Shown: positions 19,181 through 19,204 of the stretch, one piece after another
How positions within the stretch are numbered: the first letter of the stretch is position 1
Layout of the letters: the number at the start of each line of letters is the position of its first letter
DNA from: an uncultured Verrucomicrobiae bacterium
GTDB taxonomy: Bacteria; Chlamydiota; Chlamydiia; Chlamydiales; Rhabdochlamydiaceae
Direction: 5' to 3'
NCBI GenBank assembly: GCA_963731265.1
Contig: CAVSUE010000002.1
Location: 275,045-339,044, forward strand
DNA length: 64,000 nt
Translations under genes and position numbers: made by a program
The notes under the pieces: model-generated
Told to the model about the DNA's origin: nothing
What the model saw: only the letters and a program-made list of their open reading frames with translations
The model's database searches: none

Positions 19181-19204
19181 CTAGTTTGTGATAATTATGT
19201 TCAT
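19181..19204 (-). CDS. mccA: Microcin C-like heptapeptide precursor MNIIITN
   Basis: AAGGAG-N7-ATG AAC ATA ATT ATC ACA AAC TAG: 7 aa with C-terminal Asn, 60 nt upstream of the MccB-like gene. Confidence 0.85.
   Translation of the reverse strand: MNIIITN

Follow-up and report, generated by a model that had tools for sequence, protein, structure and literature searches.

A probable remnant of a microcin C-type operon, with its heptapeptide gene, in a chlamydial genome

The heptapeptide gene and the truncated mccB

We analyzed a 64,000-nucleotide (64-kb) stretch of contig CAVSUE010000002.1 from a chlamydial genome; this whole stretch is referred to as the window. On its minus strand lies a candidate gene for a microcin C (McC)-type precursor peptide, mccA, followed by the beginning of a gene resembling that of the modifying enzyme, mccB. 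The MccA of Escherichia coli is the heptapeptide MRTGNAN, and MccB adenylates its terminal Asn, giving a Trojan-horse inhibitor of aspartyl-tRNA synthetase. The mccA-type gene of the window (19181-19204, minus strand), read directly and supported by related loci, is ATG AAC ATA ATT ATC ACA AAC TAG and encodes MNIIITN followed by a stop. A Shine-Dalgarno (SD) motif, AAGGAG, is located 7 nt before the ATG (19212-19217, minus strand; read directly), and exactly 60 nt (19180-19121) separate the mccA stop from the ATG of an open reading frame (ORF) of 173 aa (19120-18599, minus strand). An earlier note on this DNA had reported the micro-ORF, the AAGGAG-N7-ATG arrangement, the coordinates, and the 60-nt spacing, and every value was correct on re-reading.

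Upstream of mccA, a consensus scan revealed a putative promoter-like site, TTGACG-17-TATTTT (19263-19291, minus strand), with 9 of 12 matches. Between this site and the SD motif, a terminator-like scan and a minimum-free-energy (MFE) fold delineated an inverted repeat of 8 pairs, CTTGTTGG-N5-CCAACAAG, followed by a T run (19236-19256, minus strand); this repeat may act as an operator or as a 5' stabilizing stem. A terminator- or attenuator-like hairpin, CCTCGGGG...CTCCGAGG (19143-19172, minus strand), was predicted between mccA and mccB in both the MFE and the centroid folds. Its 3' tail is an A/U-rich stretch with no clean U run.

MccB is defined by an N-terminal RRE/peptide-clamp domain of ~90 residues, to which ~260 residues are fused that form a ThiF-like adenylation domain and bear Cys pairs at the C-terminal end (PMC12250964). 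By tblastn, Pfam, PDB, and tree, the part of the 173-aa ORF at 18647-19120 (minus strand) was assigned to residues 1-158 of the ~351-aa MccB, that is, the N-terminal domain and ~70 residues from the start of the adenylation domain, as far as SNLxR. The earlier note had placed the end of the homologous part at 18647, and tblastn of full-length homologues against the window indeed stopped there, aligning residues 1-163 of the relative P0001 (equivalent to 1-158 of the 351-aa form) with 19135/19120-18647; homology to all relatives ends at 18647-18654. For the MccB residues past 163 of P0001, tblastn with full-length MccB found nothing in the 64-kb window. From the breakpoint at ~18647, an unrelated tail of 15 codons and a stop, AALNGILHPLLTRVG (18599-18646, minus strand), closes the truncated ORF and has no counterpart in full-length homologues. 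In the same way, the Pfam ThiF profile matched the ORF (E 1e-14) at its positions 12-64 of 238 only. We counted 71 family-invariant columns: all 32 up to R163 are kept in the window copy, and all 39 after R163 are absent, with four tail letters that MAFFT had set on later invariant columns being discounted. The lost residues include K176, D219, C264, C346, and C349 (conserved Lys, Asp, and Cys pairs). Altogether, ~190 residues are missing from the C terminus of the window enzyme: the greater part of the adenylation domain, together with the crossover loop, the clamp segment at the C-terminal end, and the Cys pairs. In MccB as described in the literature, the last 20 residues and the crossover loop are needed for the peptide clamp, and the 260-residue adenylation domain is needed for catalysis (PMC12250964). 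Since the crossover loop, the C-terminal segment, and most of the adenylation domain are gone, the fragment cannot be active; the full-length family has the complete make-up of an MccB-type enzyme and the window copy does not.

Public records call the relatives of this ORF "ThiF family adenylyltransferase." These generic labels reflect the fact that NCBIfam has no MccB-specific model and that its ThiF and MoeB equivalogs score far under their cut-offs. P0001 obtained 102.9 bits against a cut-off of 275 for ThiF (TIGR02356) and 84.3 bits against 266 for MoeB (NF004281); the 173-aa ORF obtained 44.8 and 37.3 bits, respectively. A large protein collection contained 52 longer relatives of the ORF, 36 of them at 56-79% identity and mostly 351-352 aa long, and the few organism names among the 52 were Waddliaceae, Chlamydiales, and a Verrucomicrobia metagenome-assembled genome (MAG). 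A profile of eleven relatives matched E. coli MccB in PDB at E 3e-101 over positions 5-348 of 353, with weaker matches to ThiF (9e-25), PaaA (1.3e-24), and MoeB (3e-24). For the 173-aa ORF by itself, the best solved structure was again E. coli MccB (E 5.6e-16), with ThiF eleven orders weaker (2e-5). A fold search was also run with the closest full-length relative as modeled by AlphaFold (mean predicted local distance difference test score, 79). The first 12 matches listed were E. coli MccB (E 1.7e-29, 35% identity, 347 columns), followed by PaaA (2.3e-16, 17% identity), ThiF (3e-14), and MoeB (6e-14). As judged from these profiles and from the model, the family of the neighboring gene is MccB, as the earlier note had suspected, and its homologues group with MccB and not with ThiF/MoeB. 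A PaaA-type enzyme was considered and rejected, on the profile and fold values given above and on the length of the precursor, which has 7 residues here versus ~30 aa for PaaP-like precursors.

In a maximum-likelihood tree of 28 rows, the window fragment fell within a chlamydial clade of 7 rows (support 100/99) and had a Parachlamydiaceae locus as its nearest neighbor. The main branches of the tree hold 18 rows, including the chlamydial clade, and 10 rows, including the validated enzymes of Helicobacter pylori and Lactobacillus johnsonii. Among the related loci (L001 onwards; see below), L020 and L030 (partial matches), L023, L026, and L027 (contig-edge or shorter matches), and L019 were omitted from the tree, the last being equal to L018 in its MHRIMKN ORF, in the distance of that ORF, and in identity to the query.

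Heptapeptide genes and operons in related loci

Searching one genome per species with a profile of full-length relatives of the neighboring protein yielded 33 loci. We counted ORFs of the form ATG-X5-AAY-stop on both strands and defined the upstream zone as the 450 nt before the mccB-like gene on the same strand. The earlier note had pointed to M-X5-N peptides upstream of homologues as a check on its proposal, and heptapeptide ORFs ending in Asn were present in this zone in 28 of the 33 loci. An SD-like motif precedes 26 of the 29 upstream ORFs, in 26 loci. The rest of the 33 loci (754,184 nt, both strands) contained 11 such ORFs, none with an SD, which amounts to ~0.007 per 450 nt; the window itself, on both strands, has 3, and MNIIITN alone has an SD-like motif. 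Two of the five loci without a heptapeptide (L003 and L023) have just 35 and 75 nt of upstream sequence, and L017 carries an Asn-terminated candidate of 18-21 aa in its place. No upstream heptapeptide ORF was found in the 450-nt zone of L009 and L020. In the same scan, MKLSYRN came up ahead of the H. pylori genes and MHRIMKN ahead of the L. johnsonii gene; for both peptides, adenylation by the cognate MccB has been demonstrated (Bantysh et al. 2014, PMC4010828). Across the 28 loci, the heptapeptide length and the terminal Asn are kept while the other positions vary freely. On this comparison, we regard the MNIIITN ORF as a genuine microcin C-type precursor gene and not a chance occurrence.

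These counts also bear on the proposal that the heptapeptide ORF is a regulatory leader or a product of chance and that its neighbor is an ordinary ThiF/MoeB sulfur-carrier activating enzyme. Such a reading could appeal to Pfam and NCBIfam, which name just ThiF/MoeB-type families, and to the regulatory role of ribosome binding to E. coli mccA (PMC4231749). However, the ThiF and MoeB equivalog scores fall far below cut-off, the MccB match runs end to end and includes an N-terminal domain that ThiF and MoeB lack, and the seven codons with terminal Asn recur upstream of the homologues, where orthologous peptides are proven substrates (PMC4010828). The chance control, the MccB profile match, and the fold search effectively refute this proposal, and we give it next to no credence.

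The chlamydial peptides belong to a single family: MNTITKN (L001), MNTISKN (L002 and L005), MNTITTN (L004), MNIITMN (L006), and MNIIITN (window). With the published MDTVTTN included, they follow the pattern M-[ND]-[TI]-[IV]-[TSI]-x-N. Other MccA candidates, from L007-L032 and spread over many phyla, include MNCELRN (Parachlamydiales MAG), MNSTARN, MRKYVHN (Legionellaceae MAG), MDITSGN (Opitutales MAG), MNTTPRN (Oscillospiraceae MAG), MLKLGGN (Nocardioides stalactiti), MDDLIRN, MGDSMAN, MIGKPHN (Legionella sp.), MAGPLRN (Pilibacter termitis), MRGNSMN (Entomospira plasmid), MHVTPSN (Lactobacillus iners), and MRLIIRN (Alkalithermobacter). The MccB of L018 (Stoquefichus MAG) is nearly identical to that of L031 (L. 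johnsonii), with tree branches of 0 and 0.0027, and the MHRIMKN ORF lies at an equal distance from the match in L018, L031, and L019 ("Tenericutes" MAG), which suggests recent transfer or bin contamination.

The gene order in the chlamydial loci is mccA, mccB (351 aa), an overlapping MFS gene (~410 codons), and a GNAT Acetyltransf_3 gene (~187 codons). L001, L002, L004, and L005 have all four genes, with the GNAT gene (PF13302) found in these loci; an MFS gene (PF07690) directly follows mccB in these and in L006 and L007. An S66 peptidase gene is present in L005 alone, and its product scores E 6e-120 against MccF-like structures, 2e-34 against E. coli MccF, and 1e-18 against murein LD-carboxypeptidases. 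The earlier note had expected an MFS exporter or immunity genes downstream in homologues, and both kinds follow mccB where the chlamydial cluster is intact. Across the six chlamydial loci that are intact or nearly so, the genes adjoin one another, with some overlap, and therefore form one unit. As far as gene content indicates, the chlamydial loci are of a minimal mccABC-plus-immunity layout. The mcc island of L001 is flanked by an AbiEi/AbiEii toxin-antitoxin pair upstream (5884-7343) and by a phage-integrase-family fragment of 157 aa downstream (11098-11568). About 1.2 kb upstream of the L005 cluster (Parachlamydiaceae bacterium HS-T3), a weak match to a group I intron was seen at 6624-6819 on the plus strand (27.2 bits versus a gathering threshold of 50, E 0.0069).

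An alignment of the chlamydial DNA revealed a conserved set of signals: the -35 block, the leader inverted repeat, the SD motif, the micro-ORF, and the mccA-mccB hairpin. TTGAC of the -35 block is kept, and the leader inverted repeat is conserved in L001 and, in part, in L005 and L002. The RNAalifold consensus of the intergenic hairpin from 6 sequences has 11 pairs, 4 of which show compensatory double changes. In E. coli, an intrinsic terminator between mccA and mccB, which depends on ribosome binding to mccA, produces the excess of mccA transcript; such a terminator has also been reported in H. pylori and is stated to be recognizable across all mcc-like operons (PMC4231749). Searched against Rfam at the gathering threshold, the whole window gave a tRNA (10969-11042) as its sole match. 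A permissive scan of 19100-19700 gave a match to freshwater-2 (RF02980) at 19277-19202 on the minus strand, over the mccA leader stem and the SD motif (23.4 bits versus a gathering threshold of 49.9, E 0.25). The same model gave no match in L001, L002, L004, L005, or L006, and the hit is for this reason probably due to chance; it was rejected.

State and decay of the window locus

The neighbors examined in the window and in the related loci were MFS, GNAT, S66, AbiE, integrase, enolase, and RsgA. In tblastn searches of the 64-kb window with the proteins of the relatives (E < 0.1), no MFS, GNAT, S66, or integrase homologues were detected. Of an mcc cluster, the window contains the precursor ORF and the intergenic terminator-like hairpin, and it lacks an exporter (MccC, MFS) and self-immunity (MccE-type GNAT and/or MccF-type S66). 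Because mccB is without ~190 C-terminal residues and no exporter or immunity gene is present, the window locus, as its gene content is read, cannot make the antibiotic and is most likely a non-functional remnant. At most, the unmodified heptapeptide may still be transcribed and translated. The earlier note had written that the lineage "carried" the system, and the truncation bears out the past tense.

In a blastn comparison with L001, the similarity spanned 18654-19298 of the window, at 74.5% identity. From this comparison and the G+C content (GC), the whole surviving piece of the mcc island is 18647-19298. The GC is 39.0% over 18647-19120 and 34.3% over 19121-19298, compared with 45.5% for the window. 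The flanks show no synteny with the chlamydial loci, similarity stopping on both sides of ~18650-19298. The low GC, this lack of flank synteny, and the AbiE pair and integrase fragment beside the L001 copy all fit a horizontal acquisition of the island. Taken together, the locus is very probably the 5' end of a horizontally acquired mcc operon, the remainder of which has been deleted.

Set against the divergence of the sampled copies, the deletion seems recent, since the retained part is undamaged: all 32 of its invariant residues are in place, and its proportion of nonsynonymous differences (pN) lies within the range of its relatives. pN was 0.13-0.26 between the window fragment and its relatives and 0.13-0.29 when the other six copies, of which five are intact, were compared with each other. 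The corresponding synonymous proportion (pS) was 0.63-0.79 and saturated, so that pN alone was compared and no real dN/dS was obtained.

One alternative is that the system is alive: the mccA product of the window would be modified by an intact MccB whose gene, like that of an exporting pump, lies in another part of the genome or on a plasmid. The promoter-like site, the SD motif, mccA, and the intergenic hairpin are all intact, the retained part of mccB is free of internal damage, and the window covers just 64 kb of a contig that is at least 339 kb long. We consider such complementation in trans improbable nevertheless, given that the window has nothing like the missing half of MccB, an MFS protein, a GNAT, or an S66 peptidase, and that the six intact or near-intact chlamydial loci carry these genes as one unit; a duplicate island would be unusual. 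The truncated ORF could alternatively be a functional RRE-only peptide-binding protein, kept together with mccA to sequester or sense the peptide. The 173-aa ORF is open and is called as a protein, and every invariant RRE residue is retained. However, in a set of 15 shorter database relatives, the window form makes up a cluster by itself, and its end point is shared by no other protein; the rest of the short forms break elsewhere or look truncated by contig ends. Moreover, ~70 residues of an incomplete Rossmann fold joined to an unrelated 15-residue tail have the appearance of an accident, and this second alternative is very improbable.

Several points weigh against reading the locus as a deletion remnant of a McC-type operon. 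A misassembly at 18647 is possible, as a single sequence was at hand. Our view is of 64 kb of the genome, and an intact mccB, an exporter, or an immunity gene may exist elsewhere. The saturated synonymous sites allow no real measure of relaxed selection on the fragment, whose terminal branch in the tree (0.2) somewhat exceeds those of the relatives closest to it (0.085-0.14). The promoter and the hairpins are consensus and fold predictions, and the z-score for the fold of the whole leader was just -1.7. In a sequence search of PDB, the GNAT matched only general RimJ/RimL-type GNATs, with no MccE-specific match. Lastly, that the chlamydial MccA/MccB pairs would carry out adenylation, and not, for example, cytidylation, is inferred by analogy with characterized enzymes.

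The window copy is not the only broken one. In L005 (8001-9062), the mccB of strain HS-T3 has an in-frame stop at approximately residue 218 (GD*ENV), in a cluster that is otherwise complete (mccA-B-C-GNAT-MccF); as sequenced, this is a second chlamydial genome in which the mcc system has been inactivated, independently of the window. Of the 15 shorter database relatives, three, with lengths of 218, 115, and 96 aa, run into unrelated sequence, each at a different position; P0177, P0180, and P0185 are of this kind. In P0179 (228 aa, metagenomic), the MccB N terminus extends up to GCGGIGNVV and there passes straight into the C-terminal part of a GNAT, which looks like an internal deletion that took the 3' half of mccB, mccC, and the 5' end of the GNAT gene. 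The broken state of the metagenomic homologues (~50) was judged from protein sequence alone. The varied breakages in the window copy and its relatives suggest that chlamydiae acquire mcc islands by horizontal transfer and that the islands then break down quickly.

The earlier note had also taken the genome to be chlamydial. Among the 120 matches listed for the enolase encoded near the remnant, the named relatives were Parachlamydiales and Rhabdochlamydiaceae (1 each) and a Verrucomicrobia MAG (2). The best of these 120 matches was 95% identical. The names support a chlamydial/PVC origin with no finer placement. A spacer of 326 nt (19299-19624) extends from the enolase stop to the mcc promoter-like site, with a GC of 55.8% versus 45.5% for the window. 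It contains only overlapping multi-frame ORFs, has no Rfam match, and folds with a z-score of -1.9 versus shuffles; similar sequence occurs at 3110-3140 (90% over 31 nt) and 63423-63473 (76% over 55 nt). This spacer may be a repeat element or a decayed gene. On the deletion side of the remnant are two plus-strand ORFs with no Pfam family, of 359 aa (16912-17991) and 160 aa (18026-18508). The former contains the motif GFSLGG, which looks like a lipase/esterase nucleophile elbow. Farther away, 22928-23851 (plus strand) and 23891-24781 (minus strand) encode convergent paralogues of 307 and 296 aa (33% identity over 260 residues, E 2e-47). Both have a hydrophobic segment at the N terminus, and neither has a Pfam family.

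Proposed mechanism and comparison with known systems

By analogy with characterized systems, the intact relatives of the window locus would function as follows. The intergenic hairpin would yield a surplus of short mccA transcript. The MccB dimer would clamp the heptapeptide by its N-terminal RRE domain and, with ATP, convert the C-terminal Asn via a succinimide intermediate to an isoasparaginyl-nucleotide with a phosphoramidate bond. The peptidyl-nucleotide product would be exported by the MFS pump, while the producer would be protected by the GNAT acetyltransferase and, in one locus, by the MccF-like S66 peptidase, both of which would detoxify the processed compound. In a target cell, import by a peptide transporter and trimming of the peptide would release a non-hydrolyzable aspartyl-adenylate mimic that blocks aspartyl-tRNA synthetase. 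The gene content of the relatives is directly observed; the chemistry is taken from the enzymes of E. coli, H. pylori, and L. johnsonii. Conversion of Asn to an isoAsn-phosphoramidate-nucleotide and inhibition of aspartyl-tRNA synthetase by the processed product have been described for homologues from H. pylori, L. johnsonii, S. thermophilus, and B. washoensis (PMC4010828). The proposal of the earlier note that the targets are co-infecting bacteria or host organelles is speculation.

McC-like clusters with 7-residue precursors are well described across diverse bacteria (PMC4010828; PMC6495379). The novelty that the earlier note implied is not supported: Table S1 of Zukher et al. 2019 (PMC6495379) already lists Chlamydiales bacterium SCGC AG-110-P3, with the predicted MccA peptide MDTVTTN, and the MccB of Parachlamydiaceae bacterium HS-T3, which is marked there as unused for the tree; in addition, the window copy cannot make the antibiotic. 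The chlamydial entries are confined to that supplementary table, the string "chlamyd" having 0 occurrences in the main text (PMC6495379). Our literature searches found no paper discussing mcc in chlamydiae; a Waddlia genome paper does mention an S66 peptidase as a possible microcin resistance. The presence of mcc in chlamydiae is therefore known from a supplementary table, and what is new, modestly, is the chlamydial peptide family and the repeated decay. Because the window locus is non-functional and chlamydial mcc was already on record, we see the result as a solid annotation rather than a surprise.

A more far-reaching reading is that environmental chlamydiae own a clade of McC-type antibiotics whose carrier is the uncharged M-N-[TI]-I-[TSI]-x-N, directed against rival bacteria within a shared amoebal host and repeatedly gained and lost, and that, in addition, an orphan but wholly intact promoter-mccA-hairpin module in the window is still expressed and feeds an MccB elsewhere, or the heptapeptide/RRE fragment has a role of its own. 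We regard this combination as unlikely. For the remnant itself, the practical lesson is that a 7-codon gene invisible to ORF callers is reliably recognizable from its context. A distinct, uncharged family of carrier peptides from obligate intracellular bacteria joins the McC-like compounds, with six chlamydial variants besides the published MDTVTTN, and these peptides are candidates for in vitro synthesis and uptake studies. The horizontal gain and quick decay suggested for mcc islands also bear on how much antibiotic warfare intracellular symbionts really sustain.

The enzymes with which the chlamydial family could be confused, PaaA (pantocin A) and ThiF/MoeB, share with it a Rossmann-type adenylation domain, and PaaA also has an N-terminal RRE. 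They differ in their lower identity in the fold search (17-25%, compared with 35% for MccB), and ThiF and MoeB are without the N-terminal domain. A characterized system close to the chlamydial loci is the E. coli mccABCDE + mccF system (MccB structures 3H5A, 3H5N, 3H9G, and 6OM4), with which the chlamydial loci share the order of a 7-codon Met...Asn gene, a hairpin, and mccB. E. coli MccB also has the whole-length alignment and the fold in common with the chlamydial family, and the relatives carry MFS, GNAT, and, in one case, MccF-like peptidase genes. In contrast to E. coli, the chlamydial loci show no mccD and no MccE N-terminal domain (aminopropyl decoration), and the window peptide is uncharged and hydrophobic/hydroxylated, whereas the E. 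coli peptide is basic; the window copy, moreover, has neither the catalytic half of MccB nor any of the genes that lie downstream. The minimal mccABC clusters of H. pylori and L. johnsonii (PMC4010828) share the minimal architecture and were recovered by the same scan, but their enzymes belong to the other main MccB branch, at ~30-34% identity to the chlamydial enzyme. The chlamydial entries of Table S1 come from the same phylum and have the same peptide family, the HS-T3 locus being our L005, with MNTISKN. The window copy differs from these entries in being a deletion remnant and in its peptide, MNIIITN.

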